Source of the DNA: Psammoneis japonica
Lineage: Eukaryota
NCBI GenBank assembly: GCA_008632985.1
Contig: QPGO01000066.1
Location: 203,771 to 267,770 of the forward strand
Length of the DNA stretch: 64,000 nt
Direction of reading: 5' to 3'
The translations under genes were made by a program, and so were the position numbers. Shown here one piece after another: positions 1 through 64,000 of the stretch (positions are counted from its first letter, which is position 1; each line of letters begins with the position of its first letter). A model generated the notes under the pieces. That model saw only the letters and a program-made list of their open reading frames with translations, did not search any database and was not told the DNA's origin.

Positions 1-468
1 AATTTCCTTGCTGTTCTTTCCACTTTTTCAAACACCGTGCAGTGCCTCTTTTGTTGTGCAGCCTTGCAGAGCAAAGCATGATGCCAATTGCAAGACAAAA
101 CTGCCCTGTGTCACTCTCTGAATCTTTTCTCCTTCAGTGGCAGCTCATGCTCCTGGGTGCGCACTCTGGTTGGTTGCAGAGCAAACCACAAGCACCAAAC
201 CTCAAGATGCAGCTCACAATGTTGAAGGGCCCAGAGCCAGAGCTTTGACCAGAGAGTTGCAAAGGGTGGCCAGAATGAGCCACAAGCAAAACTTGCTCTT
301 TTGTTGGCTCATTGACATGCAGCGCAACATTGACAAAAGAAAGGATTGAAATTGCAACAGCTTTGGAGAGGCTTGCAGCTGCACATGAGTGCATTCCAGA
401 ATCAGTGACAATGCGCTCCAGCTCTGGGCACGACTCTGTGTGACAGCAAACTTCGTTGCACAAGAGTG

Positions 469-781
469 CAAGGTGGCACAGGTGCAAAAATGAGCCAGAC
501 CTCATGTGTGCAGAACTCAGTGTGTTTTCTGCACAAATCACCAAAGTCACCTTGCCAACTTCAATCCTCTCCAACAAGATGGAAACATGGACAACTCACA
601 TGATGATGACAAAGAGTTTGGAGTGCTTGTTTGGACTCCCCTTGACTTGTTTGTGGAGAAAAGCTGAATGTTTTCAAGCATTTATGAAGACAGTGCACAC
701 CAAGTCCAATCCAAAAGGTGCCAAAATTGCAACCTTGGAGCTTTGCAGAGCTGCACCAAATGACAAATGTGTGTGAACATG

Positions 782-814
<33 letters not shown>

Positions 815-1000
815 CAAACAAGTCAACAGGAGTGCAAGCAAGCAGCCCAACCAAGCACCACTTTGTTGTGTGAAATGTTCAAGTTCACATCATCTGGGAG
901 AGGGTTTGAGTTGGCAAAGTGACTTTGGAAATTTGTGCAGCAAACATGCCGAGTTCTGTGCATGTGGAATCTGGCCCATTTTTGTGCCCGTGCTGCCTTG
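469..1000. mobile_element. Degenerate foldback/MITE-like element with ~130-bp inverted arms (469-600 and ~870-1000)
   Basis: caaggtggcacaggtgcaaaaatgagccag... aligns to the reverse complement of ...ctggcccatttttgtgcccgtgctgccttg. Confidence 0.7.
785..812. repeat. (TC)n microsatellite
   Basis: Pure TC run. Confidence 0.95.
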
Positions 1001-1009
1001 ACCAACTGA

Positions 1010-1326
1010 AACACTTGTCTTGAACATCAAACAAATGACCAAGTTTGCAGTGCAGTGCACATTGTGTCTGTCCATGCTTGAAGTTTTTGAACACCCACCC
1101 ACCCCACACCTTTCTTAAATGACCAAGAGAGGTGCAGAAGAAAAACATTGACAGTTGTGGTTGAGCGGATCACCCAAAAATTGCACCACAAAATGGTGCA
1201 AAATTCCACCAAAAACATGCGGAAATGTGTGTGCATGACATGTGGCATGATCCCAAAAGTTGTCAATGTCACAGCTCAGCGGCACAAGGTCCCACCTGCA
1301 TCTGCTCCAGTGAGCTGGAATGTGTG
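1010..1326 (+). mobile_element. Decayed partial copy of the ~390-bp MITE at 62535-62924
   Basis: tgtcaatgtcacagctcagcggcacaaggtcccacct matches tgtcgatgtcacagttcagcagtgcgaggtcccacct; upstream blocks are collinear. Confidence 0.75.
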
Positions 1327-2664
1327 TAAAATGCTCGGGGCACAGACCACTGTCTCCCTCTCTGGCCTCCGATCTGTGCCGCACAATTGCACAGCCAAGA
1401 CGGCTGCTGCCCTCTGCCACTCTCTGACTCTTCTCTCCTCTGGTGGTGGCTGATGCTCCTGGCTGAGCACTGTGGTTGGTTGTGGCACAAGCCACAAGCA
1501 CCAGACCCAAGATGCCAGCTTCAAGCTTCGTTGTGAAAATCCAATGCACTCTTTGGGGAAAGAATTTCAAATGACAGGTGTCATCACATTCGATGAGATC
1601 TGCTCAGGTGATCAACAGCCACAGCCGCACAGACATGCAGCACGCACCACAAAATGGCTGAAACATCAAGGAAGAAGCACTGCAGGGCCCTGTCCAACAA
1701 GCAGACTGCTCTGCCAGATGAGTGTGCAGCCATGGGTGGGGATGTGGCACAAATCACATGGAAACAAATTTCCGTGGATCGAAACAAGAGTCGCCTCAGT
1801 TGACAGAGGGTGTTCAGAGGTGTTTGGAATGGGGGGCAACTTTTTCATTGGCCTTGCATTTGTCAACATTGATGGTGATGAAGTGACTGCCATTTTGCTG
1901 CACTTTGCTGTGCAATCATGACTGAAAACATTTCGATTTTTCAAAAATCCTGCTGTCACTTGTTTGTGGTTGTGGAGGGCCACTGCTGCTTTTGTGATGC
2001 CAACACTTGCCAACATCAAAAGCAGAGACTTTTTCATGTCTCTGATGATGCATCTGCCAAGTCAGCTGACTCTGCAGTCAGAAAAAAGTGAAGCTGTGCT
2101 TTGGTCCTGAATGACATGTTTGCAATTTTGGAGTGTCATTGCAGCCATTGTGACACCAAAAGTGACCAACATCAGTTGTAGAATCTCTCACATCTCCAAC
2201 AATGCATCTGCCACTGCAGCTGTCACATCAGCTGCAGAGAATGATTGACATCCTCTTTCTTGCTTTTCCTGCACTTCACTGTGTGACACAATCTGTGGAG
2301 TGCAAAGGCACACCCATTTCGCGGTGATGCTGAGGCAGGTCACAGGTCCCATTTTCCAACTGTGCTCAACTCTGCATTTTTGTCCTTTCCACCACAACAA
2401 CTGCCTGCTGGAGCCTTCCTCTTCAATTTCAAAGTCTGGGTCCTCATCATCGTTGCTCTCCTTGACATCCATTGTTGCTTCTTCCTTGCCTGCACAGGAG
2501 TGCTGTGCCAGCAACGGCTGTGGACTGTTGTGAGCAACACTGTGCATTTTAAAAGTGCAAACAGATGGTGTGCTTGGCATTCAAGCAAGTCATGACCTGG
2601 TCTTTTGGCAACAGCTTTCGGAGCCACACTTGCAGCTTTGGTTTCATCACTGTGACACTGTCCA

Positions 2665-2796
2665 CAGCAAAAGTTGGCATGCATTGATGCCACTTCCACA
2701 AGAGCACACCACTTGCTTCTTGACAGCAATGTCAAAGCTCAACTCAGCCTTGTCAAAAACATCCAGAAGCTCTTGTGTTGGTTTCAGTTTCAACCA
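2665..2796 (-). pseudogene. Fragment of a sulfurtransferase (rhodanese/MST C-terminal domain)
   Basis: LKPTQELLDVFDKAELSFDIAVKKQVVCSCGSGINACQLL resembles the CGSGVTAC active-site loop and its preceding helix. The rest of the gene is not recognisable. Confidence 0.55.
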
Positions 2797-3187
2797 AAAT
2801 TGTCCGCACGGATTCAACATGAGAAATTCCCTCTCATCTGCAACTTGCAATGTCATCTTCATGCCCACTGCATGAACAGGATCCCATGCTTGATGTGCAA
2901 TGGAATGGAGTCACCAAACAGCTCCAAGGCTTTTGCCCTCATGGCTCTTGTTGGTTCTGTCTCATGTCACCCAGCCCACCTTGATCCGCTCCTCCAAGAA
3001 GCCACCCTGCATGCATCAAAAATGAAACGATGCATTGTCGCTCATGGAGTGGAATGGAAATCATGTTTGTGGAGTAAAATTTGTCCCCTCCTTGCTGCAA
3101 ATGACAATCTGTGTGGTTCGTGGATGTCAATGAAGAGCTGGGGCAAATGCGAGACAACAAGGCACTTTTTCTTGCAGGAGAAACAAC

Positions 3188-3397
3188 TTGGGGGAAGTCT
3201 CCAGCCAGCTGCTGGCTGAAAAAAGTCTGATCATCAGCGCGTTTGGGGGTTTTGCAAGTGCAATTTTTGTGCATGCAAAAGAAGATGAGTCTGTCCAGCG
3301 TTCATCAAAACCCCCTGATGCACAGATTGACAGACTCTTTCAGCGCAATTTCTGCACAAAATCATTCAGCCAGCAGCTGGCTGGAGACTTCCCCCAA
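3188..3397. mobile_element. 210-bp MITE with a perfect 33-bp inverted repeat
   Basis: ttgggggaagtctccagccagctgctggctgaa (3188-3220) is the exact reverse complement of 3365-3397. Confidence 0.85.
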
Positions 3398-4330
3398 ACT
3401 GACATGGTCTGAATCAGGGCTTTCAAGCTCATCCATTGCCAAAACCACTCTGTGTGTGATTCTGGAAACAGCACAACAAGGGCGCTGGCATGGGCAAAAA
3501 AGGAACGTGCTGCATGATGAGGGTCGCAAGCCAATTCTGATTCAACCCACACGCGTTGTTGACAGCGCCACACACACTTCATGCACTCACCTCTTCCAGC
3601 ACAAACATTGTCAGCATTCTTGCTTTGATGTTGTGAGATGTTGTCATCCAGGCGGCTCAGCTCTGTCTCATGAAAGTGCCATTTGGGTGACGGCATGTTG
3701 CTTGGACAAGACATGAGGTCATTCTCAGACATTTCAAAGCTGCTCAATGAAGCTGCCGCCATGAGAGTCATGCTTCGGTGCTCCCTGCCTGATTCGATGA
3801 TGGCGGACATGATGGCATCAAAAGTGCAACTTTTCACGATGATCCTGAGGGAAGCATTTTTTGGTGCAAAACGACATGTGTGTTGGTCAGGTGCTGACTT
3901 TGCTCAATTTCTCCACCAAACCATTGCTCGAGATGGCCCCTCGGTGTGTTCCACCTGATTGTGTGATCGCGGACATTATGATGCTTTGAAGGGGCTGTCC
4001 AAAACAGTGATTCTGAGGGTGCGAAAGCGATTTGTGGCAAGAAACGGCAGGTTGATTTTTTGGTTGTCGCTCAGCGAAGGCTACGGAGTTGGAAGCTCGG
4101 ACTTGCGCGTTGTGACCGCACGTTGAGTCTTATGACATCCATGGTCCATTTGGGCAACGAGGTTGATTTCTTCTAAAAAAACATAAATAGCACCTGCGTG
4201 ATTTCTACTACGGCGTACCCACCCATAGCAGCGCGGATGTTGCTGCTGCCATCTGCCATCATCACCGCTGCTGGTTTGCTGTGTTGTCTCTATTGAGCCC
4301 ATAAGGTGTCATTCAGCCCACATTACAACC

Positions 4331-5770: not shown

Positions 5771-7404
5771 GGATCCAAGGCTCTTTACCAACTCAACACC
5801 ATTTCGGCTACGTGTGCCACAGATAATTTCCAGTTCGCTTTGAGACAGTCGAAGATGATTCTTGGAACCGCACGACCCAAGCTGGTGCTCCAGGTGATTG
5901 ATGAAAATTCCTCGTGTGACTGGAAACTTCGCATCATTTGGACAAACATTTTGATGCAACATTGGAGTGTCAACGTTTTCATCATCGCAACTGAATGATT
6001 GTCACAGATGAGTCAACTCATCATGTCATGCCCGCTTTGCAAAAGAGAGTATGCACTGTCAAATCAGCCACGGCAGCTTGTTTTGACATCTTCGGGGGAT
6101 CCGACCATTGCCATTGTTGATGCCAGGAACGACGAGAATGTCGTGTCCTCCAACCCTTTACCCTTTCATTTCTCGTGGGGCACTTTTGATTCGCAAACGG
6201 ATCCAAATCGTCAATGGTACTGTGACGCACAAGCGGCATTTCCTTCCAATAGCGAGTCTCTAGCGAAGCCCTGAAGCCGCCGCATAGAGCATCCAACATG
6301 ATAGTGCCATTTTCCGACTCATCCTTATAATTTTTTATCCAGTATTGTTCCGCCAAGAGAGAATTTTCAAGAGCTTTTCGTTTTCCTCTTTTCTCGTTTG
6401 TTGAGCTTTTATGCGCCTTGACGGTGTTCCGTATAATATCAATCGACGTTCAGCATACCATTACAAGCAAATCATTTTAAAATGCTCAAATCACCATTCT
6501 GTACTTGAATGGGATTGCGTAGACAACATTGCCCTTTCCTTGGAAGATACCCTCATGGTTGCCGAGCACTCGATATATTTACGGTATTCGTCTTTGTAAA
6601 ATGGGGTTTGATAACGAGCTCGAGACTTGCGCTTCGCGGTTGCACACCACTGGGAGTACGAATCAAAACTTTCGCTTCGACTGTTTCCGCATTCCCATTG
6701 ACGCCTTCTTGACAAGAGACGTGAGCCAACAGACGAGAAATCTGTTCAACTACATATTGACAATAGCATCATCCTTTGCAAATGCCGTTGATTTACTGCT
6801 ATCGTACCTCACACGAAACATGAACTCGCGAAATGCCAGCTGACAACCATCCATATATTCTAAATCAGATTTGGGACGCATCATGATGGTCTTTTTCCTC
6901 CTCGTTATATTGTTGCGCTACCTCCTATCCGGTTCAAGAGCCTCACGTTTGTGTTCCGCAAAATCATTGACACGGACAAGATCCTGGGCCTTTTTGGTGT
7001 GCGTCCAATATTTGCTGGTAAAAACGCTCATCCAGCCTCATGACCGTCCACACACATGGGAAGCGTCTTCACGAAACATATGGGAAGCGGAGTTTCGTCT
7101 TTGAAGTCGTTTCGATAGCACGTGTTACCGGAACCGGGCACTCGATATAGACAAACACCACGTCGTCGCAACTTTGTGGTCTTTTTAGAGGTACATGAAA
7201 AGAACCGTCTTGTACGTAAGGCGAGAAGGATCAGCGAGACTGGGCGCAGCGGGCGAGCGAACGAAGCCTTCATCATGGTGTCCGATAGATTGGTTGAATT
7301 CATTGTCACGTGTATGTACAGTAAAATAGATAGTGCATATGAACGTATATGGATACGAATAACAACATAGAACAATTTCGAAATACAACGGAAACTGTTG
7401 TACA

Positions 7405-8245
7405 TCCCTCGTGAACGAACCGCCGCTGTCGCAGCGAGCGACGAGCGATGATGCAAAAGCGGCGCTGGCAAGAGACATTGACGACAACAAGAGCAAGCCG
7501 CTGACGAGAAATGAATGATCTTCCAGCACTTGCTGTGTTTTTCTTTTTTCTTTTTCACGCCTTGCTGCAATTTGAAATTGCTTCAGAGGGCCCCACAGGG
7601 ATGCCGACGACGAAAGTGTGAGCCGATCGACTTTGAATCATCAAACTCATCACCGACGAATTTGCGCATTTTGCATTTTCTCAGCTGTTTGCTGTGGAGT
7701 CAATTTTGCACCGTTGTAGTTGACAAGATGGAGTGACTCCGTCAACCACAGTGTGCATCAGTGTCCACCTCGATTCCCTGACATGGAGAAGTGCAAGCCA
7801 TTGTGGACGTCTTGTGTTCTCGGATGCCGACAAGTGCTTGACCTCAAAGACCCACGTCACAAAGGCTCTGAGCACTGAATGGTCTGTTGTGGACCGAACG
7901 AGAATGAGATGAGCTGAATGCCGTGCACACCAGTTCAAGGGTGTCGTTGAAAGGGAGTGCCGACAGTGCACCATCGCCGCAGTCCGACGTTGTTTCCATT
8001 GTTTGCGGCAGATCCTGCACAGTGCAGCACAAGCAAAAAACCGGTCTGTCCTCTTCCGACCTGTCTGTCCTCTTGCAAGAGCAAACTGTGCAAAACCACT
8101 CTAAGAAGGGCTCCCCGTTGTTGCACATGCAAACCCTGTCTGCTGGCATCGGTCAGAAGGTCAACAGAGATCTTTGCGAAAACAGCGGGCTAAAAGAGTG
8201 TTGCATCATGGCACAATTGGGGGCCAAAAGCGGCACATCGCCATT
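7405..8245. other. TpA-depleted domain 2 (CpG largely retained)
   Basis: About three TA in ~840 bp while CG is common. Confidence 0.8.
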
Positions 8246-8743
8246 TTCTAAGAAAAATCTACCGTTTGAGAATTTACACAGATTTTCTATCATTAATTAT
8301 CCTCATTGATGGATGTTTTTACATGTCCATTTCCAATTCGAATGCGAGTAATAAGGCAAAACAACAACGAATGAGAGCTTATGGACCCGCATTATTCGAT
8401 ACGAGTGTGTATTATGGACTTGCCATTCTGCCCTTGCGAGAGATAATGGCTAAGCGATTGACGAAGGATGCAAAAAAAAACTGTGTAAATTTCTCGGTAT
8501 GTTGCCACGTAGAAATCTACTGACGACCGGTCTGTCCTCTTGGAACGAAAAAAGGCCCTTCTTGCGACAGTAACAATGGTGTTCAGAACCGTGAACCTGG
8601 CAAATACAGGCATAGGAGCACGTCAATTGACAATGTTAGAAGACGTAAGAAGCATTGCACAGTGAAAAGCTAATCGATTTTGGAAACAAAATCGACTTTT
8701 ACACAGATGCCAAAAGGCAGAGGACAGACCGGTTTTTTACTTG
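8030..8743. mobile_element. Tc1/mariner-type MITE (TA target duplication, ~25-bp TIR)
   Basis: Left end gCAcaagCaaaaaaccggtctgtcctct versus right end (reverse complement) gTAcaagTaaaaaaccggtctgtcctct. Internal partial TIR copy at ~8526. Confidence 0.85.
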
Positions 8744-9537: not shown

Positions 9538-12500
9538 ATGTTGTTTCGACATTTCCTGGTGTCGTTGTTGTTGTGTCGCCTTTGCCGAGGCGGCACCTTC
9601 TCGGACAAACGGCTGTTTCGGGCAGTTTGTTTGCGAGTCGTTGGGAAGGATTGCGACTCTGGTTCTCAAGATGGTGCGCCGTGGTACTGCGGTGCTTTCA
9701 AGGAAATGTGCGAGTTCAAGCAAGGAAAAGTCGACAGGAACGGTCTTGATCTGCGTTGCGGCACGTTGCTCAAGACGATGGAAGAAGGCGGCTTTGCAGC
9801 CGTCCTCCGCACCAAGGAAGAGTGTGAATCCTCAAGGAAGATTTGCCGTTGGAGCTCGGGTGGAGCAGCATGGCAACGTCTCGAATGCAAGATTGTTCTT
9901 GGTGGCGCTGAAGATGAGTTTCGTGGCGACCGCGGACGGACAAGAGGCTTGCGTCCAGGACAAAACTTCTTTTCCAGAGTTGGAAGCGGAAAGAAGGGAT
10001 CCAAAGCAAAGAGCAACAGAAAGAAAGGAAAAGGTGAGGGGAAAGGCAATGTTGACATGAAGCCGCGCCAATGCCATGGTTGGCGGAAGAAGCTCTGTGC
10101 CAACGGAAAATGCATCAATCACAAAAAGTGTTGCCCCGAGGACGCATCTTGCAAGCAAGGTGGGACGAGAAAACGTACAAGAGCGCCACGTCCCGCGCCC
10201 CGACCTGGACCAACCAAGAAGCCAGCAGGTGGTAAAGGATTTCCGATTGCCTGTCAAGGCTATGTCGGATGCAGTGACGGGAGCCGTTCTAAACGAGCCA
10301 TTTGCCGCCGTCAAGGAAATAGCGTCCGCACGCTATGCATTTCTAAAAGCCTTGCTTTGCGTCGCCTTGTAGTGCCTGGTTCGGACGGCACTTATTGCGG
10401 CTGCTGCACAACCGAGCAAGAACCTAACCGCCGTCCATCCTATTGTGCGAGGTACGACGGGATCGTTGATGCCTCTTTTATCAAGGATGGACTTGTTCCC
10501 GGGCTGTCTACAGTTGATGAAGATTCGACTTTGGACGTTGCGGGCTCAAGCTATAAGATTGCAGCTACTGGATCGGTTGCCAATGCAGGCCTTGTAATTC
10601 TCTCCAAAGTTTCGCATCTTATTGATTCAGTAGACTGCGTATTCTCAGCACAGGGACAGAGCAAGGTTACCATTATCCTGAAGGCTGGATTGCTCTTTGG
10701 GTCCGTGAAGGAACTGTTTCCTCAAAAAGCTGTGTTGGTGGTCGAGGGTGATGTATTTGGCTCGTGCTTGTTAGATTCGGTACCCGAAAACCAGGTCGGT
10801 ATCGACATTACTCGACTTGACGAGTTTTCTGATGATGGTTACTTAATTATCAAGTCGGTTCAGGGTAGCGATAGGAAAGTAGATGTTTCGGGCGTTGCCA
10901 CGGATTTCTTCTCTCTATTCAAGTCACTAAGCGCCAGGCTCACGCGTTCTGTTATAGAAGCTGGGTCGCAACGTGCTTTAGTCGAATCCTGTTTGGGATT
11001 TGGTATCGAGGGTCCCGAGACAGCTGTCGAAAACGAAGACGCCCCATTTTCGTTCATGTTCGAGGGTCAGGTGTGCGGCAATGTCGGCGTTGATTTCTTC
11101 CTCGATGCCTCTCTTGGCGATATCGACCTTGAACTTAAACTTTCATTTGGGTACAAGGTTCAGGCCAAAGCTGAAGTGGGTTTTGAACGCCAATTCGAAA
11201 CTTTTGAGCCCGTTCAACGGAAGATTCCAACACTTAACTTCGGCAGTATCCCAATCATCCTACGACTTCGCGGGGTTCCACTCAAACTCTTTCTCAAGTT
11301 GAGCGCAGAGAAATTTGTTCTTGAAGCCGATCAGACGGCGTCTATTTTTTCCTTGGCTGAATTCAGCTTAGAGCAGCCTGTCGCTGAAATAACACTGAAA
11401 GTTACAGGTAGCTTACTCGGCGTTGGGTTGCGCGCCGCGGTAGATAGCAGCGTCGCCCCCATGCAGAGCGAAGGCGAGGCAAGTGCTGTAATCCCTGCTT
11501 TAAATGCTGACTACAAAGTCTCGAGCTTTGCTGGGCTTCTTCCTGAGATCATAGGGGCAGCGATTTCAAAACGATTCTCGTTCCTAGTTTCTACAAAAAC
11601 GGGCATGCATATGGAGGGAAAGACCCAAGTGTCACAATACGATGGGAAACAGCTTAATCCAAATGAATTGCCTACCGAAGTTGGTCCATGTGACGAGAAC
11701 CATGATTTTGAATTGACGGTGTCTGCGGGGTCGGGAGGCATCAAGTTTGGATATTACATTGATCTGACCCCTCCAGGGGGGAACCTTGATCCAATCTACC
11801 TTCAAGACTCAGTCGAAATCACGGGAATAAATGATCAGGACTTGTTGCTTGTATGTGATCATTTGGAGGATCAGCCTTCGCTCGAGCCTAGTGTTGAACC
11901 CTCCGATCCGCCGTCATTGAGCCCTTCAGATCAGCCATCATCATACTCTTCCATGTGGCCTTCGGATCAACCTTCTCTGGAACCTAGTGGCGAACCTTCC
12001 GATCAGCCATCATTGAGCCTTTCCGATCAGCCATCGTCAGACCCTTCCATACGACCTTCGGATCAACCTTCTTTGGAACCTAGCGGTGAGCCCTCTGATC
12101 CGACGTCATCGAGTCCTTCCACGCAACCATCAAGTTGCATGAATGATGATGATGATTGTGATGGGGTTCCCGACGCCTTTGACCTATGCCCCGGGGTTGA
12201 CGACATCAATGACCCTTCATGTGTGATCATCACCCAATCGGTTTTCGCTCTGGACAGGTTCAAGACAGATGTATCCCTCGATCAGGAATCGGAGGCTGTA
12301 AAGATTGATTTCATTGTAAAAGAGGAGGGAATGATGAAGTCCTCCTTACGCATGGTTTATGATCCTCAAACAGCAACAGTGCAAGAAATCCATCTTGTCG
12401 TACGGAAAGATGATTCTGAGAGCATACTTGCCACAATAGAAGCAACCAGCGAGGGGGAGAGAAAGAAAAGAACCCTTCATCAGTCTCTGGAAGTACGTTC

Positions 12501-15500
12501 AGGGGGGGCTTCTTATTCTCGCCTGCTGAACGAGGGTTGTTGTGACTTTGGTTCTCTCACCAGATGTGAAGCCGCTTTAGGCGCCATGGCCGGTTACGCT
12601 TGCAGCAAGATATTAACAGAAATTGTTTGTCTTCCTTTTGGTCTTGGAAGAACAGTGTGCAAACAGATAGCAGGAAGATACATGGAGGGCGTGTGTGGGC
12701 TAGGTCTTACCGGTGACGCGGTGGGAAACTTCTTAAAGAGAGGATGCGAAACAGGTCTTGGCTGTTCAGCGGACCCTTGCTGCGGCTCGGAAGATCCTTG
12801 TTGTGGTTCAGACGACGAATGCTGCGGCTCCGATGACCCTTGTTGCGGCTCTGATGACCCTTGTTGCGGCTCGGAAGACGAATGCTGCGGCAATAACGAC
12901 CCTTGTTGTGGTTCAGACGACGAATGCTGCGGCTCTGATGACCCTTGTTGTGGTTCAGACGACGAATGCTGCGGCTCCGATGACCCTTGTTGCGGCAATG
13001 ACGACCCTTGTTGTGGTTCAGAAGACGGATGCTGCGGCTCGGCTTCTTGTGAAGATGATGACAAAGCGCGTTCAGATGGCGACCCGCACATCCTTACGTT
13101 TGACAATTTGGCTTATTCGTGCCAGGGAGAAGGCGAGTTTACCTTGGTGAAGTCGTTGGATTCTGGTCTTCTTGTGCAGACGCGCTTCAAGAAGTCAAAG
13201 TTCAATTCAAGGGTGAGCGTCACGCGCGGATTCGCTGCGCGGGTGAGCGAGAATTCTCCAATAGTACAACTAGCTATTCCCGAAATTGACGGCACTCCGA
13301 TCTTGTACATCGACTCTGTTCTCCACGACACGCTTGTTCCGTACGACGATGAGCATGTCTCCTACACGCCAGCAAGTGGTGGTTCCAGGTTCACCGTGCA
13401 ATTCAAGGAATGGAGGTTGACTGTTGTTGGTCGGATGTCTGGAGATTTCGTTCTGAACGTGGAAGTGTCCATCTCGAAAAACTTCCGCGCAGAACGCATC
13501 GTAGGTTTAATGGGTAGCAACGATGATGACTCAACTAATGACTGGATGACATCGGATGGAACCGTTTTCCGGTGCCAGAAGACCCAGAAGGAGAGGGCTT
13601 ATCTCAATATGAATACTGCGTCACGAACTGGTGTATCCTAAACGAAGACGAGTCTTTGTTCTTCTATGATCAAGATCTTGACTTTTCCTACTACTTTGGG
13701 TGCGATCAGCCATACGAAGGGGACGTAGATCTTTCTGGAGTGAGCGATGAGGTTAGGGATCTTTGTGGCATTGATCAAGAATGCTTGATTGATGGGGTGG
13801 TATTGGGTCTAGACATTGCCCAGAGTACTCTCGAGGGTAAGGCTTCTGCATCACTCCCTCCACATGGGTTCACGATGTCAACTACAATGTTACGTTTACG
13901 GTGAACATCAGTACAGTTCCTCCTATTGAAACAGGCTCCATTGACGCTTATTCGATTTATCACTTGGGTGATCGAACTGTATTTCTTGGAACAGCCAGCA
14001 AGACAACACAGGAGGGCAAGGTGTTTGTCATTACGACATCTCTACGATCGCAGATTGCCGGAGAAAGCTTATCGTTTCAAGCTGTACCGCAAATGAACGG
14101 GGTTGACGTTCCATCGTCACGGCACGTTTTCACTCGATTTAATGGGGCGATTTGCTTTTCTCGAGTATCAGGAATCGGATTGACGAATCTTTTTGCCGAC
14201 CTATCTAATCTTCCCATAGGCGTGAGCTTGTGGGTTTACGACATAGAGGAGGTTTTTCTAGTACAGCGGAATGCCGGAAACAGTACTCAGCTTCTCAGTG
14301 TCCCTGCTACAAAAATTTTTGTCAATGTCATTGATACAAGTGCTGATATTTGGAAACTGGTGGACTGCTTCGCTGGCACTTGTCAATTGATGGATTTCAC
14401 TGCAATGTTGGAGGTGGATGTGTCGAGGCTACCCAATTTGTACGAATTGGAGCTCCTGACAGAATCCGGTAGCAGGTTTCGCAGGGATCTAAATGCTGGC
14501 GGATCTATCGCGTCCTACAAAATTCTTGCCCTACCAAACGTGACCGTTGCCCTACCGAGGGCAGGGGTGCCGGTCCTGTGCGTCCATATTTTGTTCGGGA
14601 CCTCGACTGTTCTTCTGGGTCGTGTCGCGTCGACGACGTGACGAACGACTTGTACGTTAACTTGACTGGACTCGAGGATAATGACTTGGAGATTCGATTG
14701 TATGATTCCGAGCTTGGTGGTGGGCTTCGGTTCATTCGCGACGTTATGAATGAAACGGATTTTACAACCGCCGTCTTGCCATTTGTTTACGACGTTGAAG
14801 TTAGAGATAATTCGGATGGGTTGGCGATCCTCGGAATCAGTGGTGTTGACTGCTCCGGGAGCTCGTGCGCTATTGGCCCATTCAATGCGGTGTTGGAGGT
14901 GGATGTGTCTAAGTTACCGAATCTATACAAAGTGGAGCTCCTGAATGAAGCTGATGGGCGTAGCTTTCGAATCGATCTTGATGCTGGTGGAACAGTCGCG
15001 TCCTACAAAATTCTTACCCTACCAAATGTGACCGTTGCCCTAACCGAGGGCAAGGGGGCTGGGCCAGTGCGTCCGTATTCTGTACGAGACCTTGACTGTT
15101 CTTCTGGGTCGTGTCGCGTCGACGACGTGACGAACGACTTGTACGTTAACTTGACTGGACTCGAGGATAATGACTTGGAGATTCGATTGTATGATTCCGA
15201 GCTTGGTGGTGGGCTTCGGTTCATTCGCGACGTTATGAATGAAACGGATTTTACAACCGCCGTCTTGCCATTTGTTTACGACGTTGAAGTTAGAGATAAT
15301 TCGGATGGGTTGGCGATCCTTGGAACCAGTGGTGTTGACTGCTCCGGGAGCTCGTGCGCTATTGGCCCATTCAATGCGGTGTTGGAGGTGGATGTGTCTA
15401 AGTTACCGAATCTGTACAAAGTGGAGCTCCTGAATGAAGCTGATGGGCGTAGCTTTCGAATCGATCTTAATGCTGGTGGAACAATCGCGTCCTACAAAAT

Positions 15501-16335: not shown

Positions 16336-16369
16336 TTGGTGTTTAGGTATTTTGCGAGACGAGATTAGT

Positions 16370-54927: not shown

Positions 54928-55778
54928 GAAACTTTGATAATGCTGTGTGATTTTTATAATCCATAAACCAAGTCAAGTCTTGGACCAAGCCGATTTGTCA
55001 ATTGGCGGCACGCTTTTCTTGCATTTAAGAGGAGTACGCGACGTTGAAACAGCTGTTCGGTCTGCGTGCGCCCCGAATTGAAGTTCATAATGAAGCTTTC
55101 GAACGATACAATCGCATAATTACATGTTGCATTACTCGATAGATATTATTTGGCTTCTGGCTATCAAAAATGCAAACGTTCCTCTTGTCCTCTAGCTACT
55201 GCAATGCAACCAAGTTGAGCAACTCTGTTGTGATGTGAGTTACGTTTTCAGTGTCGCAGCGCATGGGATAGATCTCCACAATAATGTCTCTACACAAGCC
55301 AACACAATCCCCAACATATCGCCAAGCCGCGTATCTACCAAACCTTGAAGCTTGCTCTCGATCTAGGACGAGAGTACTATTTTCGCAGTGCCCTAGGCCT
55401 ACAGCTCTAAGTATGGCTAGCTAGAGAGTAGCTACTCTCTACTCTAGAGAGAGAGCCGTACAGTAGAGCTAGTAGAGAGCATTGTACCTCAAAGAGGGAC
55501 GATAGTACGGTACCATACCCGTATCTCGCGTGCCTCACCCCTGTGAAGCTTGACTCCTCCGACTCAATGAAGCCATCGTCCCATCTTTATAATAGTATTT
55601 GTGAATGTATATACTATATCATTGGGTATTTGGCAAAATTCCGCTCACTTTTTCTTCTGCAACAGCAAATGAAAATGTTCGCGTCCCCCATTTCTTGGTG
55701 CCGTGTTTGGATCCATTCCCCTCACAATTTCGCACACCTCAGATTTGCTGAAGCCAACGTTTATGACAACAAAGCAAA

Positions 55779-57053
55779 ATGAAGACCAGTGAATATGTCT
55801 TACGCTTTGTGTTTCTGCCATTGATGCTCTACTTTGTGTTTTTCTCCCGCACTGTGCGATTGGAGAAGTACTTACCTCGCATTGAAATTGATATGTGCGA
55901 ATCTGGGGACTGCGAACTTCCAATGCCTCCTTCGACCTCCCTACCTACAGATTACCCATTCGAAATGTCGGCTTGTATTATTGTCAAGGAGGATAACCAA
56001 ATCTTGCCAGAATGGATAGCATACCACTACGAGGTTTTACCCCTCCGCCACTTGATTGTCGCGGTTGATCCATACAGTAAAATTTCACCAGAGCCAGTCC
56101 TGGAGAAGTTCCGTTCGCTACCAAACATGACCATTGAAATGTGGCGCGATGAAGATTATCTGCAAAAGGGGCAGTTTTTTAAGCCTGACGCCGACAGAGG
56201 AGAGCGACTCCAGCTTCATCGGAAGCGTCAACCAACATTTATGAAAGCATGTCTCGAATCGTTGAAAAAGCAAAACAAAACATGGACAGTGCTCATTGAT
56301 CCCGATGAGTACTGGATTTTCAACGACTACGACGAAAACGAGGAAGCAAAGCCCTGGTGCTTTTTTGACGCGAATTTAACGAGAAGGGCTGAATGTGAAA
56401 ATAAGTATTATGAGGACATTAAGAATGGTGTGCACCCACGAAATAGGCTACCAAAGATTGGAGAAGCCACTGTGGCGCACTATTTAGCAAGTGAGCTGAA
56501 TCGTACCGACAGGTACTGGCATTTCGATACGCCGTGCATTATTGTGCCCCGTGTTCTGTTTGCAAACGATGAGAGCCTACACAATGAAACACACGCCCAA
56601 GTCCCGATCGGATTTGATCCTAATGCCTTCTACACACTCCGCTATCGTCATCATCAGCCACATCAAAGCAACTATCCGGGGAAGCCAATAATGGATGCTT
56701 CGCAGTATGATGGAAGTCGAGTGGAGAACCCGCACCGTCTCAATGAAGATCTCTGCCAACACGCCGCTTTTGTTTCTTACGCAGAATCCATGTTCCGAGT
56801 CCATCACTATATTGGTCCTAGGTCAGATGCTCAGGGTAGAAAGTCGGACGAGCAATACAAGGCGAGATTGGACGAAGTCGGCAGAATTGTGGGTACGAAC
56901 GATGAGATTCGTGGGTGGCTGAAACTGTTTGCGCAACGGGTCGGCAAGAAGAAGGCGCTGGAGTTAACACAGGAATTGCGGGCCAGTGCTCTTGAAGATC
57001 TGGCAAAATTGGCGAACAACCAGACGAGAAGGAAGCTTCGGCACCGGTCATGA
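55779..57053 (+). CDS. Glycosyltransferase-like protein, paralog 4
   Basis: TM helix, SACIIVKEDNQILPEWIAYH, IDPDEY. Confidence 0.9.
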   Translation: MKTSEYVLRFVFLPLMLYFVFFSRTVRLEKYLPRIEIDMCESGDCELPMPPSTSLPTDYPFEMSACIIVKEDNQILPEWIAYHYEVLPLRHLIVAVDPYSKISPEPVLEKFRSLPNMTIEMWRDEDYLQKGQFFKPDADRGERLQLHRKRQPTFMKACLESLKKQNKTWTVLIDPDEYWIFNDYDENEEAKPWCFFDANLTRRAECENKYYEDIKNGVHPRNRLPKIGEATVAHYLASELNRTDRYWHFDTPCIIVPRVLFANDESLHNETHAQVPIGFDPNAFYTLRYRHHQPHQSNYPGKPIMDASQYDGSRVENPHRLNEDLCQHAAFVSYAESMFRVHHYIGPRSDAQGRKSDEQYKARLDEVGRIVGTNDEIRGWLKLFAQRVGKKKALELTQELRASALEDLAKLANNQTRRKLRHRS

Positions 57054-57638
57054 GTTCGACAGGGGCTTCTACTTTACAAATGAGGTTCTAACATATGGGA
57101 GGCAGATCAGTCAAGATACATGTCGCTTCCTGTTGGACAAAGAGGAAGTCATACCTCATTCCTTCGGTTCACTGCCCGAAAACATTCCGCGACCTAGTCA
57201 AGATACCGGTATATCTGCCTACTTTACTTAGATTGTAACAGTGCAATGCTGTTGTATGGAACCTATCAGCATCTTGATCAACATTTTTGCAAAGAAGTGC
57301 ACACTGCAATGAATTATTTTCAATCGTAGCTTTGTCCGTACTTTCAACTCTTGACACTTGCTAGCTAGACCTACCGTTGCTAGCCCTACTCTCTACTATC
57401 GGTTATTCGGCTTACGGATACTACTGTGATACTGTAGCAACTTGGATCAATATATATCGAATATTCGTACCCTAATATTATGTCGGGACTAAGGGTTCGG
57501 GATTTCCGCGCTGAGATCTTGGACAAATCCGCTCACTTTTTCATGCCCGCAGGTTTCAGAAGTTCGCATCACATAAATGAGAGACTCTCAACAGTTTCAT
57601 GCGGCTGTAATTGCTCTTTATAAAGCGTACGAGGAATA

Positions 57639-58913
57639 ATGAAGAACTGGGATTACGTCTTACGATGGATATTCTTCCCGTTGTTCGTCTACTTTGTTAT
57701 CTTCGCCCGGACTTTTCAACTCGATCGGTATTTACAATTTATCCAAGACAGGTGTGAATCTACAGATTGCGAATCATCCACATCGCCGCCAACGGATTTC
57801 CCCTTTGAAATGTCTGCTTGTATTATTGTCAAGGAGGACAATCGCATCTTGCCGGAATGGATCGCGTATCATTATGAAGTTTTACCTCTTCGTCATTTGA
57901 TCGTTGCGGTTGATCCGTACAGCAGAGTTTCGCCAGCACCGATATTGGAAAAGTTCCGTACGTTACCAAATATGACGATTGAAATGTGGAAAGATGAAGA
58001 CTATCTAGAAAAGGGGGAGTTTTACAACCCAACGGCAGACAGCGCAGAGCGACTGAAATTACATCGCTGGCGGCAACCAGTGTTTATGTCAAAATGTCTG
58101 AATTCCCTAAAAAGGCAGAACAGGACTTGGACAGTGCTAATTGATCCCGATGAGTATTGGGTCTTCAATGACTATAACAAAAAGGAACAAGCCGGGCCCT
58201 GGTGCCGTCATATCTATAATTCTGACAGTCGTGAAATGGTTCGTGAAATACTTGGATGCCGTAAACAGTTTAAGAATGACGTTGAAAAGGGATTACACCC
58301 ACGGTCGAGAGTACCAGAGATTGGTGACGCTACGGTGGCACACTACCTGGCCAATGAGCTGAACCGCACAGACAGGTACTGGCATTTTGATAAGCCGTGC
58401 ATAACGGTGCCCCGTGTTCTCTTTTCCAATGATGCGAGTTTACCGAATGAAACACACGCCCAAGTTCCGGACGGGTTTAATCCAGATAATTTCTTTACAC
58501 TCCGGTATCGCCATCATCAAATACATCAGAACAAGTACCCTGGAAAACCACTTGTGGATGCTTCGCGGTACGATGGAAGCGATATACTATCTCCTCACCA
58601 TCTGAGTGACGAACTGTGTGTGCACAATACTTTTGTTTCATACGCCGAAGCAATGTTTCGTGTCCATCACTACATTGGCCCTAGGGAAGAATTTTTGGGC
58701 AGAAAATCGGATGAGCAATATCAAGCCAGAATGGCAGAGGTTGGATCAATTGTGGATACGAATGACAAGATTCGAGGGTGGCTCAAATCGTTTGTGCGAC
58801 GAGTTGGCAAAAAAAAGGCCCTCGAGTTAACACAAGAACTCAGAGCCATCGCTATTGCAGACGCTGTAAATTTGAGCAACCAGACAAGAAGAAAGCTTTG
58901 GTATCATTTATGA
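57639..58913 (+). CDS. Glycosyltransferase-like protein, paralog 5 (tandem with paralog 4)
   Basis: TM helix, SACIIVKEDNRILPEWIAYH, IDPDEY. Confidence 0.9.
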   Translation: MKNWDYVLRWIFFPLFVYFVIFARTFQLDRYLQFIQDRCESTDCESSTSPPTDFPFEMSACIIVKEDNRILPEWIAYHYEVLPLRHLIVAVDPYSRVSPAPILEKFRTLPNMTIEMWKDEDYLEKGEFYNPTADSAERLKLHRWRQPVFMSKCLNSLKRQNRTWTVLIDPDEYWVFNDYNKKEQAGPWCRHIYNSDSREMVREILGCRKQFKNDVEKGLHPRSRVPEIGDATVAHYLANELNRTDRYWHFDKPCITVPRVLFSNDASLPNETHAQVPDGFNPDNFFTLRYRHHQIHQNKYPGKPLVDASRYDGSDILSPHHLSDELCVHNTFVSYAEAMFRVHHYIGPREEFLGRKSDEQYQARMAEVGSIVDTNDKIRGWLKSFVRRVGKKKALELTQELRAIAIADAVNLSNQTRRKLWYHL

Positions 58914-59418: not shown

Positions 59419-61104
59419 TTACTTCAAATTAATGTTGAGCATCAAAAGGGAAATGATACCTGCAACAATAAAAGAAGTGAGATTGGAGTGCTGTTGGAAA
59501 GCGCTCGACGGGGCACCTGAAGGGCTACCCGTAGTGCATCCAGGACCGCAGGAGCATTCAGTGCACTGAGCATTCAAAATACAGCCACCTGAAAAAGGAT
59601 GAATGAGAAAAGAAACATCGTTTAAGATTCGTACGGTGAAAGCACAAAAATTTGGTTCATCCTATTCAATGTACGTACCAGCTGGGCAGGCGCAGCGAAA
59701 GGTACATTCCGTCATGTCGCATCCGCCTGTAGGGCAAGAGCACTCTTGCGTGCCGTCCAAGAGTGGGTTACAAACCATGGCATTGTTTGAGGACAAAGGC
59801 GTGGGAGGGCTAGAAGCCGGTGCAGTGTTGTCTGCTAGTTCGATAATGCCGCACACATCAGGAACGCCTTCATTATCAAGGAGGACGAGAGCTAAACCTT
59901 CAACCTCAGAAAGGTAATAACCCGGATCACCCGGCCTACCTGGCCTTAATACTCTCGGAGAAAAGGCGAAGCGTTCATCAACACGGCCATTGTCTGAGGT
60001 TTCGTACGCCATGAAGCACCAAGGAAACAAAGTTGAGTCCGCAAGGGACCTCCTCGTGTCATTTTGGAAGTTCCGCCATAACTCGTACTGGGGAGAATCC
60101 ATGATGATTTTACGCTCGCAGGAGCTTGCATTGTATATGGCCAGGTAACAATCTTTATCATCATCACAAGCCGAACTGACTTGAACATCGTCGATCGATA
60201 TGATGATGGACCCAACGCCATCCGAATCTGGAGAAAGGGCACTCAGCTTGACTTGAGGTTCTCCTTCCGTGGATGGATCCACATCAGGGCGGCTGACGGA
60301 TGCTCCACCATCACTCCATCCCACCAGACGCCTCACAGTAGCCCTCTCCAAACTGGTTGTAGTACATCCTGCACCACAGCTGCACTCAATGCAGTCTTCG
60401 CTCATCAGACAGTTACCTGAAAGGGCAATGGATAAAGAATCGGAGAGCGATAGGATTTCAATTTTAGCTACAGAATAGAGAATGCACAGATGTTATTTGG
60501 GTTTTGATTGTGCTGCTTACCGGCAGGGCAGGCACAGCGGAAGGAGCACTGGCTCATGTCGCAGCCACCCGAGACACAAGAGCACTCTTCTGTTCCCGAC
60601 TTCAAAGGATTGCACGTCATGGCGTTAGGGAAAGAAGTAGGAGGGCCTGGGACGTCAGGAGGAGAAGCGGAATCAGGGGCATCGTGGATGCACTCCCCGA
60701 GCCAGCAAGGGCATTCGGTCTCTGAGCAACCCATGGTACAACCTTTCAAGCAGGATGAAAGAATCTGGGCATTCGGCATGTGGCAATAACCACCAGAGCA
60801 TGCACAGCGGCTGGTGCAAGAACTCATGTCGCACCCACCAATGCCCGCGCAAGAGCATCCCTCCGTGCAGGAAGACATGTCGCAATCCCCTACAGCCAGG
60901 AAGAGGAGAATTTATGAGTATTCCTGTATGTTGTACGCACGGCAGCTGCAAATAATAGGAAACGCTGGATGGGACATTGAAAAGCTTACCTCCCAAGCAT
61001 GCGCATTCTCTGTTTTCGAGGGCGCATACGACAAATCCCTCGGCGGCCACGGAGACCGCTTTCATCTCGACGGTGACGAGGAAGAGTAGAGAGAAGAACT
61101 TCAT
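59419..61104 (-). CDS. Secreted, probably GPI-anchored Cys-rich protein, 463 aa, four exons (61104-60990, 60889-60521, 60416-59679, 59588-59419)
   Basis: Three GT..AG phase-1 introns give a 1,392-nt open frame. Signal peptide MKFFSLLFLV; repeated CSCxxGGCDMxxCxxRCAC; C-terminal PSSA plus hydrophobic tail. Confidence 0.88.
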
Positions 61105-61744
61105 CTCGTTGAGGTTGCAGCAAAACCTACAGGATGGTGTGCACGACGTACTGTATGCTTTATGATACCAAAGACAACTCTCTGGAAAAAGTGAGGCGAT
61201 CCTGCCTTGAGGCGATCTTGAAAACGACGGACGACCGGCTCGTTCGAGCGACCTTTTGGAAGTTGAAGCAATGCTGCATAGGTTAAATACGACATGCGGT
61301 AATATAGAAACTTTTAATAATAACCTTGTAACGGCCTTCATATGTTTTTGTGTGGATATTCAAATCTTTTAAAATGAAAACAATGCGAGGACGAATTGCA
61401 AGAGCGATCACTTTGAAGTTGAAGCAATGCGGCATTTTTCATTTTAAAACATTCTCTATGTACGTTGATATAAGACTTAGGAACCATCGCTTTTTAACGG
61501 CCTTCCTTATGTTCTTTTTTGCGTCTTTCGATAAATAGAACATCAAGTAGTTATGCTCAAACTAACGTCGCCAAAAGCTCCCTTGTAACGGCCTTCTTCT
61601 TTCGCATTTCCACAAGTTCTGTACGTTGCCCGTAGCCGATTCCGCTCCGCGATAGACACGCGATGTTTTTTCCGTCACAAAAACAGCAAATCAACCATGA
61701 AGATTGCTGACTCCGTAAGGCTTCTTATCACCGCGTTTCCGGCC

Positions 61745-64000
61745 ACCTTTCAATGTGTGTGGATGGATGGTGGCCTCATGTTTGAGGCCCTGCAACGTGG
61801 CATCTTTCTGGGAGTTGTCAAGTCCAATGTCTCGTCTGCCTTCTGAGGCGCCTCAAAGTCGGTCGCCCTTCGTGTGGACAACTGTGCCGAGGGTTACACT
61901 GCTGCACTGTCACTTGGTCAGGTGAGGACCTCCAGCACAGCTGCTGTGAAGCATGCGAGCCCAAAGGGTGTTTGCTTCTAAGGATCGGGTGCCAAGCAAA
62001 GTGAGAGACAAGGAAGACACAGACGTCGTGGAAGACTGTCTGAAGCCGGCTGCAAGGATGGAAACAATGCTGCTGCTCCCGACACTTTTGGCAGTTCAGA
62101 AGCACCGCCTCACAGTGATTCAGAACCTGCAACAGGTGATCATGGCAGAACCATGGGCTCCGGTGAGAAGTTGGTCCACGCTGATCTGTCGGATGATTTT
62201 GCAAATGTGAGCTCCAACAGTCCAGCAGCAACTGTCGGAATCAGGAAATCCTTGAAAACACAACCGAAACGTGGATGTCATGTTGGGCATTTGGGGGAGT
62301 TTCTTTAGCAGCAATGGGTGTTGACACAAGATTCTAAGACACCAATTTGATGGTTTGCAGAGAGCATGATCGGATGATTGGGGTTGGGAAATCCGACGCG
62401 TTCCAGGTCTAGGTGGGACCTCGCACTGCTGAACTGTGACATCGACAGTTTTTTGAATCACGTCGTATGTCGCGCACGTAGATTTCTACGTGATTTTTTC
62501 GACATTTTGTGTCATTTTACGGTGCACTTGTTGAGACGCGTTCCAGCCCTGGGTGGGACTCCGTGTGACATTGGGCCCGTAGAATTCTACGTGCGAGCTC
62601 CGTAGTACGAGAATTTAATTGGTGGACATGTTTGTCTTCAACATCAAATAAACTGCCAAGTTTGTGGTACAATTATGCCTCTTGCCACTCGACGTTTTTG
62701 CAAATGCGCCTGCCCTACGCGATTCTTAAGACATTATAGAATCGCGCTGTAACAAAAAATGTCAAAAGTTGTTGGACGGATCGCTCAACAAGTGCACCGT
62801 AAAATGACACAAAATATCGAAAAAATCACGTAGAAATCTACGTGCGCGACATACGACGTGATTCAAAAAACTGTCGATGTCACAGTTCAGCAGTGCGAGG
62901 TCCCACCTAGACCTGGAACGCGTCTGGAGGCGTTTGTTGTGTCGCTGGGTTGGCAACAGCGACATGGAGACAAACAATTGCTGTCATAAAAACACCTTCT
63001 GCTCTCAATCCTTTTGATCAAACCTCGCCAACAGGAGCAGAACAAACAATTTCTTGGTGAGCATTGACAGCAGGACAGCTGCAATGACCAAACGAACGTT
63101 CATGAGATGCGCGACGTTGGCGCAACATGACAAAGAACATCAATGTTTTGCGACTTGCCCACGGTGCTGAAACCCTGGTTTTCTTCCATGCTGGCACCAT
63201 GCATCATCTGCCGGGATTGTGCGCTTCTTTTCGTTGGCTTTTTCTTCCATTTGGGTGGGCACGGAGGCGTTTGGGGCATCACTGCTGATTGGTGACGGCG
63301 ACATTGAGGTGCAATTGTTGTTGTCACAAAACACTTTCTGCTGGCGATCCTTTTCGCCAAATGTCAGCAACAGGAGTGGAACAAACAATCCATTGAAAAG
63401 GATCGCCAGCAGAACAGCTGCAACAAGGTTGGCACACAACAGACTGAAATGGGTTTCATCACGGCGATTGACACAAGAAGGGTTGCGCTCAACTCGAAAA
63501 AGTTGCTCAAGTGGATGGACGTACAGACTTGCGGGGGGTCTCCGTCAACTGGTTGCTGGGATTGACTGCAATCAACCTCAATGCAAACTCGACTGCAATG
63601 ACCTGATTGTCGGGAAAGAGCCGAGGTCACAATCACAATCAAGGAAGCAAAGTTGTTGGGCACAGACGAATTTTAAGATCTTCCAAGTGCTGCTCTGCTG
63701 ATCTTTGCCCCATCATTTTCCTTGGCAGTTGGCAGGAATGTCGACCCCAGTTCGGGAGTTGAAAGCAGCGCAACTTTGAGCCAACAGGTGCAGCGCAACA
63801 TTTTGTTGGCAACATCATTTGGTTTTTTGACAAGGCGGTGCAGCGGCACACAAGGCACCGCTCCGCCAGCATCATTTGAGGTTGTGTGTGTGCTGTTTGA
63901 GAAGGCAAGGAGCCATTGCAAAAGACCACTGCCAGAAAGAATCATTGGCTTGTTCACAGGATGAGAATTTTGTTTGCAGTTGTGGGCATTGTCATCTTCA
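61745..64000. other. TpA-depleted domain 7, interrupted by a TA-containing young MITE
   Basis: TA is rare in 61745-62390 and 62995-64000 but frequent in 62395-62924. Confidence 0.9.
62395..62924. mobile_element. Young ~390-bp MITE (62535-62924) plus an adjacent inverted duplicate of its right 141 bp (62395-62535)
   Basis: 62395-62535 is the reverse complement of 62784-62924 with one mismatch. The terminal motif gacgcgttccag occurs at 62395, 62535 and inverted at 62924. No TSD found. Confidence 0.85.

Follow-up and report, generated by a model that had tools for sequence, protein, structure and literature searches.

Blocks of Psammoneis japonica DNA have lost nearly all TpA to TpG and CpA, probably through a targeted mutational process acting in place

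Why should diatom DNA be nearly free of the dinucleotide 5'-TA-3' in some places and carry it at ordinary frequency next to them? This question is raised by a window of 64,000 nucleotides (the whole stretch of DNA that was analysed) from Psammoneis japonica, assembly GCA_008632985.1, contig QPGO01000066.1, positions 203,771 to 267,770 of the forward strand. In this window seven discrete blocks have lost TA, among them one with a Gypsy retrotransposon, in which a smaller element with terminal inverted repeats (TIRs) is nested, and one with a copied fragment of a host gene, ETF-QO. We consider it very likely that a process at the DNA level, acting in place on certain inserted or inactive segments, turns TA into TG or CA here.

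Based on a 500-bp sliding count over the window, the observed/expected ratio (o/e) of TA was found to be 0.00-0.10 over long stretches, where the o/e of TG+CA reached 1.5-2.0. The original prediction had claimed seven TA-poor domains with normal TA in the genes and flanks between them, and this is what we found: TA o/e is 0.03-0.21 in the seven blocks, compared to 0.52-0.60 in the six stretches that separate them, which hold the genes and their flanks. In AT-rich spacers it rises to 0.7-1.0. Pooled, the blocks hold 137 TA in 27,541 bp (27.5 kb), where about 1130 are predicted from the density outside (1496 TA in 36,459 bp; overall background o/e 0.58). It had also been claimed that the first 682 bp are without TA and that the first 4 kb have about six where a few hundred are expected. 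The first TA does stand at position 683, and the count in 1-4080 is 7 against about 276 predicted from base composition. The longest run free of TA measures 2636 bp and lies within the block at 37550-45761. At the block edges TA passes from one every 10-40 bp to none for hundreds of bp, and the change takes place within 100 bp or less. The blocks, and the features in or beside them on which the argument draws, are as follows (the strand is given where a feature has one).

1-4081: first block; TA o/e 0.03 (over 1-4080), CpG o/e 0.26; open at the window start; no family match was obtained; 21 open reading frames (ORFs) without a Pfam match.
1015-1297: old, fully mutated copy of a repeat whose unmutated counterpart is at 62632-62908.
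7402-8248: second block; TA o/e 0.06 (over 7405-8245), CpG kept (0.86); no Pfam match.
16367-18914: third block; TA o/e 0.04 (over 16370-18910), CpG o/e 0.26; single-copy by read depth.
17641-18063, plus strand: pseudogene copy of the 5' end of ETF-QO, inside the third block.
19175-19579, plus strand: start of the intact ETF-QO gene (ORF 19196-21091, Pfam ETF-QO domains), the comparator that keeps TA.
22927-25574: fourth block; TA o/e 0.03 (over 22940-25570), CpG o/e 0.24; about 24005-25338 is high-copy.
28586-35592: fifth block, composite, with a CpG-poor single-copy part and a multi-copy Gypsy element that keeps CpG; TA o/e 0.12 (over 28600-35590).
30980-35492, plus strand: Gypsy-type pol (protease, reverse transcriptase (RT), RNaseH, integrase), its reading interrupted by frameshifts, 3 stops and an insertion.
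32699-33858: nested 1160-bp element with 17-bp TIRs and an 8-bp target-site duplication (TSD) at 32691-32698 and 33859-33866; TA o/e 0.31.
37550-45761: sixth and largest block; TA o/e 0.05 (over 37555-45755), CpG o/e 0.20; no Pfam match to a transposon.
61727-62305: first depleted part of the seventh block, which has TA o/e 0.21 over 61745-64000.
62306-62987: unmutated island; TA o/e 0.54, CpG o/e 1.25; holds the intact copy of the repeat at 1015-1297.
62988-64000: second depleted part of the seventh block; open at the window end.

What has taken the place of TA? In the blocks the o/e of TG is 1.76 and that of CA 1.68, compared to 1.16 and 1.14 outside. With the DNA outside them as the reference, the blocks lack 36.1 TA and 32.3 CG per kb and have gained 71.6 TG+CA per kb. 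The whole dinucleotide skew is accounted for by two conversions, TA to TG/CA and CG to TG/CA. The GC content is flat (0.47-0.52 in the blocks, 0.45-0.48 outside), because these conversions shift it in opposite directions. The second conversion, seen in four blocks with CpG o/e of 0.20-0.26, is like the decay of methylated CpG and feeds the same pool of TG and CA. Such decay, however, cannot remove TA, and three blocks have lost TA where CpG o/e is still 0.72-0.86, so that CpG decay alone is insufficient. The claim that it explains only the CpG loss was in this way upheld, and no stretch of the window has lost CpG without losing TA. GC-biased gene conversion was rejected, as it lacks TpA specificity and GC is flat.

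To read the direction of change, four independent comparisons with an ancestral state were used: the ETF-QO copy, the repeat pair, the tyrosine codons of the Gypsy pol and the TIRs of the nested element. The ETF-QO copy at 17641-18063 is 86.5% identical to the gene at 19175-19579, with 45 substitutions over 405 aligned columns. Ten of the gene's 11 TA are changed in the copy (CA 7, TG 3, TA 1), whereas beyond TpA the changes amount to A>G at 2 of 84 and T>C at 4 of 111. In the repeat pair, the 12 TA of 62632-62908 are found in the old copy at 1015-1297 as CA (4), TG (4), TA (1) or other (3), and its 19 CG as TG (6), CA (9), CG (1) or other (3). The two TIRs of the nested element differ by 2 mismatches, both with TA in one arm and TG or CA in the other. 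At the readable sites the changes are almost wholly A>G or T>C, limited to TpA, and the outcome is TpG or CpA according to strand. The original prediction had stated that TA became TG or CA and had regarded a TpA bias of A>G as decisive; both are seen here, the former in all four comparisons.

The third of these comparisons concerns the fifth block, whose element is, judged by its pol domain order, a Ty3/Gypsy long terminal repeat (LTR) retrotransposon. The pol at 30980-35492 gives Pfam matches to RVT_1, RT_RNaseH(_2), Integrase_H2C2 (zinc finger) and rve (core), in this order, and tblastn identities of 55-67% to full-length pols; self-BLAST of the window found no LTR pair. We retrieved 120 pol homologues and aligned 40 of them, defining a conserved Tyr site as one where 10 or more homologues align and 60% or more of these have Tyr. 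The window's codons at the 27 conserved Tyr sites are TGT (10), TGC (5), CAT (6), CAC (3), CGT (1), TTT (1) and ATG (1, an artefact of frame overlap), which means that 24 of the 27 are now TGY or CAY and 0 of 27 is TAY. Over all 1304 aligned pairs a homologue's Tyr stands opposite Cys in 567, His in 373 and Phe in 155, with Tyr itself outside the eight commonest partners. The catalytic YxDD box of the RT, YIDD in the homologue consensus, is HVDD at 32182. Tyr makes up a median of 3.6% of the homologues (n=120) and 0.2% of the block ORFs, the latter having 5.0% His and 5.8% Cys.

Foreign DNA natively low in TA was rejected on the Tyr-codon and paralogue comparisons, and a family that never had TA is excluded by the four ancestral-state comparisons. 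The same check, which the original prediction had envisaged for the consensus of the family, was made on environmental relatives. A scan with a 15-row alignment found 78 environmental Gypsy loci (a single-ORF query found none), with a median TA o/e of 0.69 and 0 of 78 below 0.3. Among the 120 homologues, the only low-Tyr member is P0123, from another public assembly (Tyr 1.5%, His 4.1%, Cys 3.6%), which has Cys or His in 4 of 12 aligned residues at the conserved-Tyr columns, where twelve other homologues have 0-1 of about 24. P0123 may have undergone partial TpA mutation in a different organism or element family.

In each block TG and CA occur in similar numbers, as in the Gypsy block with 741 TG and 601 CA, and the two are interspersed, the runs test giving no strand-coordinated runs in any of the seven blocks (z from -1.94 to +1.43). 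Both strands are hit, and the sites are independent of each other. By the same symmetry and runs test, hyperediting of single-stranded RNA or cDNA was rejected. Also rejected was mutagenesis of the WA type by polymerase eta. This enzyme, in the second phase of somatic hypermutation, causes A>G at A:T pairs after T, with a motif that includes AA, and AA is not depleted in the blocks (o/e 1.26, compared to 1.14 outside).

Are the bases themselves real? The window was compared with contigs of a read run from the same sample (X1), aligned at 90% likeness or more. Of the words sampled from 16000-21000, a fraction of 0.94 occurs in X1, and two of its contig pieces, with a word depth of 58-68, span 16001-19229 with 2 differing letters. 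Contig depth over the third block equals that of its flanks, without halving. Since deep read contigs reproduce the sequence, we regard the loss of TA as fixed DNA mutation on both strands and not as misread bases. As to the check with other reads that the original prediction had in mind, the X1 contigs show no TA restored over 16001-19229; what the common sample means for this check is discussed below. The only two differences over 16001-19229 lie at 16698 (TG vs CG) and 18753 (CG vs TG). Both being CpG/TpG, this pair is still polymorphic in the third block, where no TA remains to mutate. A second run, X2, had cover in genic parts only and none in depleted blocks, and was not used as expression evidence.

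The read contigs also allow separate copies of the Gypsy element to be compared. Their summed depth over the Gypsy region is 650-3400, compared to about 60 for unique DNA, which points to tens of copies with a likeness of at least 90%. Transitions predominate among the differences between copies, with 70 A>G, 60 T>C, 59 C>T and 46 G>A, each kind of transversion having at most 13. Within 40 of the 308 difference rows there are four adjacent double differences of CA and TG (29859/60, 29990/1, 30571/2 and 34086/7), three places with TA in the window and CA or TG in other copies, and two with the reverse. The double differences indicate that the same ancestral TA was resolved independently in separate copies.

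Several observations bear on where and when TA was lost. The nested element has a TA o/e of 0.31, compared to 0.05-0.10 in the flanking pol, and one X1 contig joins 32690 directly to 33859, which shows that other Gypsy copies are without it. As the later insertion is the less depleted, and as an element with TIRs and a TSD has no RNA stage, action on resident DNA over time is favoured. Tandem Repeats Finder found nothing at 32600-33900. The loss of TA was several times faster than the decay of CpG, because the ETF-QO copy retains 9 of 23 CpG but 1 of 11 TA and because three blocks have kept CpG; we infer a rate of TA loss that would be orders of magnitude above the base rate.

The fifth block itself is of two ages: about 28600-29340 is single-copy, poor in both CpG and TA, and older, and 29341-35592 is the multi-copy, younger Gypsy part, in which CpG is kept. 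New elements seem to settle within or next to blocks depleted before their arrival. The unmutated island at 62306-62987 is either a recent arrival or a sign that the process is episodic. It contains an internal inverted duplication, 62411-62533 being a reversed match to the same part of the 1015-1297 copy.

The 77 surviving TA of the strictly depleted parts were analysed for their flanks, with an assumed distribution of ancestral contexts. TTAA occurs 18 times and is 4.3-fold enriched, CTAA and GTAA are also enriched, and ATAT and ATAG both have a count of 0. A model of independent hits per strand, governed by whichever base follows the A, fits the order TAT > TAC > TAG > TAA with a likelihood-ratio chi-square (3 df) of 82.5 on the window background and 75.1 when the 78 Gypsy relatives serve as baseline. 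An excess of TGC/GCA in the CpG-keeping blocks agrees with this for C at +1. The order of preference at +1 is suggestive.

In the explanation that we propose, the targets would be the Gypsy family, the nested TIR element, other repeats and the copy of a gene fragment. A single kind of event, an A:T>G:C transition on either strand, would strike site by site until TA is nearly exhausted; it would halt at the segment edge and outpace CpG decay several-fold. The outcome would be inactivation, with Tyr codons turned into Cys or His, the YxDD of the RT into HVDD, and TAA and TAG stops as well as TA-bearing signals erased. The agent may be a polynucleotide adenine deaminase with a preference for a 5' T, recruited to silenced chromatin, whose product inosine would be read as G at replication; this deaminase step we put forward tentatively. 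The process would presumably serve genome defence. For the targeted, near-saturating A:T to G:C mutator of silenced DNA that the original prediction had postulated, the direction, the TpA context, the action on both strands and the discrete blocks are all seen in the window, whereas its silent-DNA part is presumed.

A number of points weigh against this explanation or parts of it. For four of the seven blocks no origin was found, and the unmutated island means that a position inside a depleted block is insufficient for mutation. Block edges close to element ends, such as that at 35592 with the end of pol at 35492, could also result from mutation before integration, and, judged from the 40 of 308 difference rows, some share of the TA losses may have been inherited from a source that was already mutated. 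The X1 run could consist of the very reads that went into the assembly, and the record gives no library type, so its chemistry may not be independent. The flank order rests on the assumed ancestral contexts, and TGT/ACA is without the excess expected for T at +1. Fungal mRNA editing of the ADAT type prefers UAG. The idea of an ADAT-like agent is weakened by this, because the +1 order of T>C>G>A found here differs from it.

The mutations could instead have been made before integration, the RNA or cDNA of a retroelement being hyper-edited by an ADAR- or ADAT-like enzyme so that elements arrive free of TA and the chromosome is untouched. This would suit the sharp edges close to element ends, a best-characterised block that is a Gypsy retroelement, its tens of similar TA-poor copies, and the preference of ADARs for a 5' U (bioRxiv 10.64898/2026.01.13.699255, in the parts drawn on here). 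However, editing of one strand predicts elements that are all TG or all CA, and here the two are equal and interspersed. Moreover, the affected element with TIRs and a TSD moves without an RNA stage, a single-copy block with a host gene fragment is affected too, the nested insertion is at an intermediate depletion, and in the chlorarachniophyte Bigelowiella natans the corresponding mutations are described as arising in resident DNA (same preprint). We regard editing before integration as very unlikely. A hypermutability of TpA throughout the genome, with unconstrained DNA drifting to a TA-free state and selection keeping TA in genes and flanks, would fit a background TA o/e that is already below 1 (0.58) and blocks that consist of non-functional DNA. 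It is contradicted by intergenic and promoter stretches, and by the start of ETF-QO in both its non-coding upstream and its aligned coding part, all of which keep TA. AT-rich spacers have TA at the ratios of up to 1.0 given above, the transitions take 100 bp or less, and an unmutated repeat copy (TA o/e 0.54) lies inside a depleted block. Such a general bias is highly improbable in our view.

The same targeted process could work through thymine, the T of TpA being modified (to 5-hydroxymethyluracil (5hmU) or a base of the J type) and pairing with G, which gives T>C. TA is a palindrome, and T>C and A>G at TpA are indistinguishable in fixed sequence; in the DNA of dinoflagellates, 5hmU shows an enrichment at TpA. 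The window gives no sign of thymine modification, and to our knowledge there is no report of abundant 5hmU or base J in diatoms, so that we consider this chemistry unlikely. If homology were the trigger, as in the repeat-induced point mutation (RIP) of fungi, duplicates and not silent chromatin would be recognised and mutated. Several blocks are or were repeats, and the mutated gene fragment duplicates a nearby gene. However, the block at 16367-18914 has a single copy when a likeness of at least 90% is required, and one member only of the 423-bp ETF-QO duplicate was mutated, for which reasons a RIP-like duplication trigger is not indicated. One copy of the 62632/1015 repeat is also unmutated, and in B. 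natans a hypermutated region derived from nucleocytoplasmic large DNA viruses (NCLDV) is given as single-copy in the parts of the preprint used here (bioRxiv 10.64898/2026.01.13.699255). A homology trigger is, we believe, quite improbable. Finally, modified bases of silent chromatin might have been misread, or errors introduced by polishing. Heavily modified DNA can give systematic base-calling errors, and the sole confirming run is from the same sample with its library type unrecorded. Misreading by strand, however, predicts reads that are all TG or all CA at half depth, whereas a fixed mosaic of TG and CA was found at full depth; the same-site differences of CA and TG between family copies and the intermediate depletion of the nested insertion also argue against it. 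An artefact of this kind is extremely unlikely. Targeted mutation in place, by contrast with these alternatives, is the explanation that we retain.

What the blocks contain was searched in several ways. A Pfam scan of the 133 block ORFs of at least 90 aa gave transposon domains in 3, all pieces of the Gypsy pol, and one weak match to DUF6550. ORF 38738-39481 in the sixth block had no homologue among proteins of 435-2000 aa. With 40 of the 120 Gypsy homologues, tblastn against the rest of the window gave a best E of 0.086, and the other blocks are therefore not recognisable remains of Gypsy. At about 24005-25338 in the fourth block the summed contig depth is 3474-4144, compared to about 60 for unique DNA. 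A transposon origin is shown for the Gypsy pol and the nested TIR element, and on read depth only for this repeat. The original prediction had spoken of sharply bounded transposon or pseudogene domains; the sharp edges stand, but two of the blocks are composite and a transposon origin applies to some only.

The genes of the window are almost intron-free and eukaryotic, comprising ETF-QO, a kinesin, a MATH-BTB protein, a VWD protein and five glycosyltransferases of the GT2_4 type. The best-scoring hits of ETF-QO share 64-71% identity with it, and the named ones (63-68%) come from diatoms, Nitzschia, Cylindrotheca, Mayamaea, Epithemia and Seminavis among them. On these hits the host was judged to be a diatom, and probably one of the raphid pennates. 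The five paralogous GT2_4/GT92-like genes, at 25678-26988 (minus strand), 35779-37320, 46000-47307, 55767-57053 and 57624-58913 (all plus strand), share 67-83% DNA identity and are spread over 33 kb between depleted blocks, all with normal TA. An in-frame tandem repeat with a unit of about 485 bp and 90-94% identity occupies 14396-15881, across the overlapping ORFs 13841-14641 and 14473-16335, the second of which has a weak CPL1-like match. A 491-bp run free of TA lies at 9685-10176, where the VWD-domain gene has its PT repeats. Its TG+CA o/e is 1.15, without excess, and this run is ordinary coding composition outside the phenomenon; it is useful as a negative control for scans based on TA alone.

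How does the process compare with those already described? Mutation-accumulation lines of B. natans have been reported in which two integrated viral regions carry 231 of 302 nuclear mutations, 230 of these 231 being A>G or T>C and all at TpA (Mettrop et al., bioRxiv 10.64898/2026.01.13.699255; this and what follows on B. natans is according to the parts of the preprint drawn on here). The larger viral region is transcriptionally silent and was hypermutated in 11 of 15 lines, and the rate in the viral regions was about 1000-fold that in the rest of the genome, in some lines only. The authors further described 124 clusters of windows poor in TpA and rich in CpA+TpG, found reverse transcriptase and DDE domains to be overrepresented among TpA-poor coding sequences, and proposed an ADAT2-like DNA adenine deaminase (bioRxiv 10.64898/2026.01.13.699255). 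With the thresholds of those clusters (Rho TpA of 0.43 or less and Rho CpA+TpG of 1.52 or more), the blocks at 1-4080, 16370-18910, 22940-25570, 28600-35590 and 37555-45755 would all be included, that at 61745-64000 narrowly (1.46 and 1.58), and that at 7405-8245 falls just short on CpA+TpG (1.59 and 1.39).

The footprint in the diatom is the same signature as in the B. natans lines: A>G and T>C at TpA only, TpG or CpA by strand, and low TpA with high CpA+TpG in particular regions that contrast strongly with other DNA, regions which are foreign or silent there and presumably so here. The claim that the phenomenon was undescribed did not survive this comparison, since the same TpA-only hypermutation had been reported in B. 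natans (bioRxiv 10.64898/2026.01.13.699255). For diatoms the original prediction still stands, as we found no report of TpA loss in them within the full-text literature searched, and diatoms and stramenopiles go unmentioned in the parts of the preprint used here. The two cases also differ. The host is a stramenopile diatom here and a rhizarian (a chlorarachniophyte) there, and the targets are repeats resembling retrotransposons and DNA transposons together with a host gene fragment, compared to insertions of giant viruses and virophages. The depletion is near-saturated here (o/e 0.03-0.12), whereas the NCLDV region has a Rho of 0.45, and strong CpG decay occurs alongside it in the diatom. In the window the loss is confined to discrete, sharp-edged blocks, with a mobile-element origin for some of them only.

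RIP in fungi consists of C:G>T:A changes, mostly CpA>TpA, which create TA and AT-rich DNA (PMC2621366, in the part used here). It resembles the diatom case in being a near-saturating transition hypermutation in a dinucleotide context, directed at mobile or duplicated DNA, with coding capacity destroyed and with sharp edges. RIP mutates both copies of a duplication, whereas one ETF-QO copy was hit here, and TA is destroyed here at flat GC where RIP creates it. In this sense the description as an inverse of RIP is apt. As for the ADAR and ADAT enzymes, the tRNA substrate of TadA/ADAT is U33-A34. What they share with the present case is A>G with U or T as the 5' neighbour (bioRxiv 10.64898/2026.01.13.699255, in the parts drawn on here). 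Unlike the process described here, they act on RNA and on one strand; in the window both DNA strands are hit, without runs, and an element with TIRs and a TSD is among the targets.

Hypermutation at TpA has so far been known from one preprint of 2026, on one rhizarian alga and its viral insertions. The signature is now seen in two lineages of the stramenopile-alveolate-rhizarian (SAR) clade, and on mobile DNA in general beyond viral insertions. To this the window adds the order of the +1 flank, a loss of TA that is faster than the decay of methylated CpG, independent hits on both strands, and an apparent action in place on an element with TIRs and a TSD. For the annotation of such genomes, it means that Tyr-free, Cys/His-rich 'ORFs' with TGA as their only stop are mutated repeats, which homology tools miss (3 of 133 recognised here). 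Diatoms might, and we say this with reserve, possess a dedicated editor of DNA that erases TpA under the guidance of chromatin or small RNA, likely an adenine deaminase acting at 5'-TAY, the same system being at work in chlorarachniophytes. On this view TpA hypermutation would be an old and widespread defence of the SAR clade, parallel to fungal RIP and opposite to it in chemistry. Should the agent prove to be a natural adenine deaminase that works on chromosomal DNA, it would be of interest for both genome defence and base-editing research.

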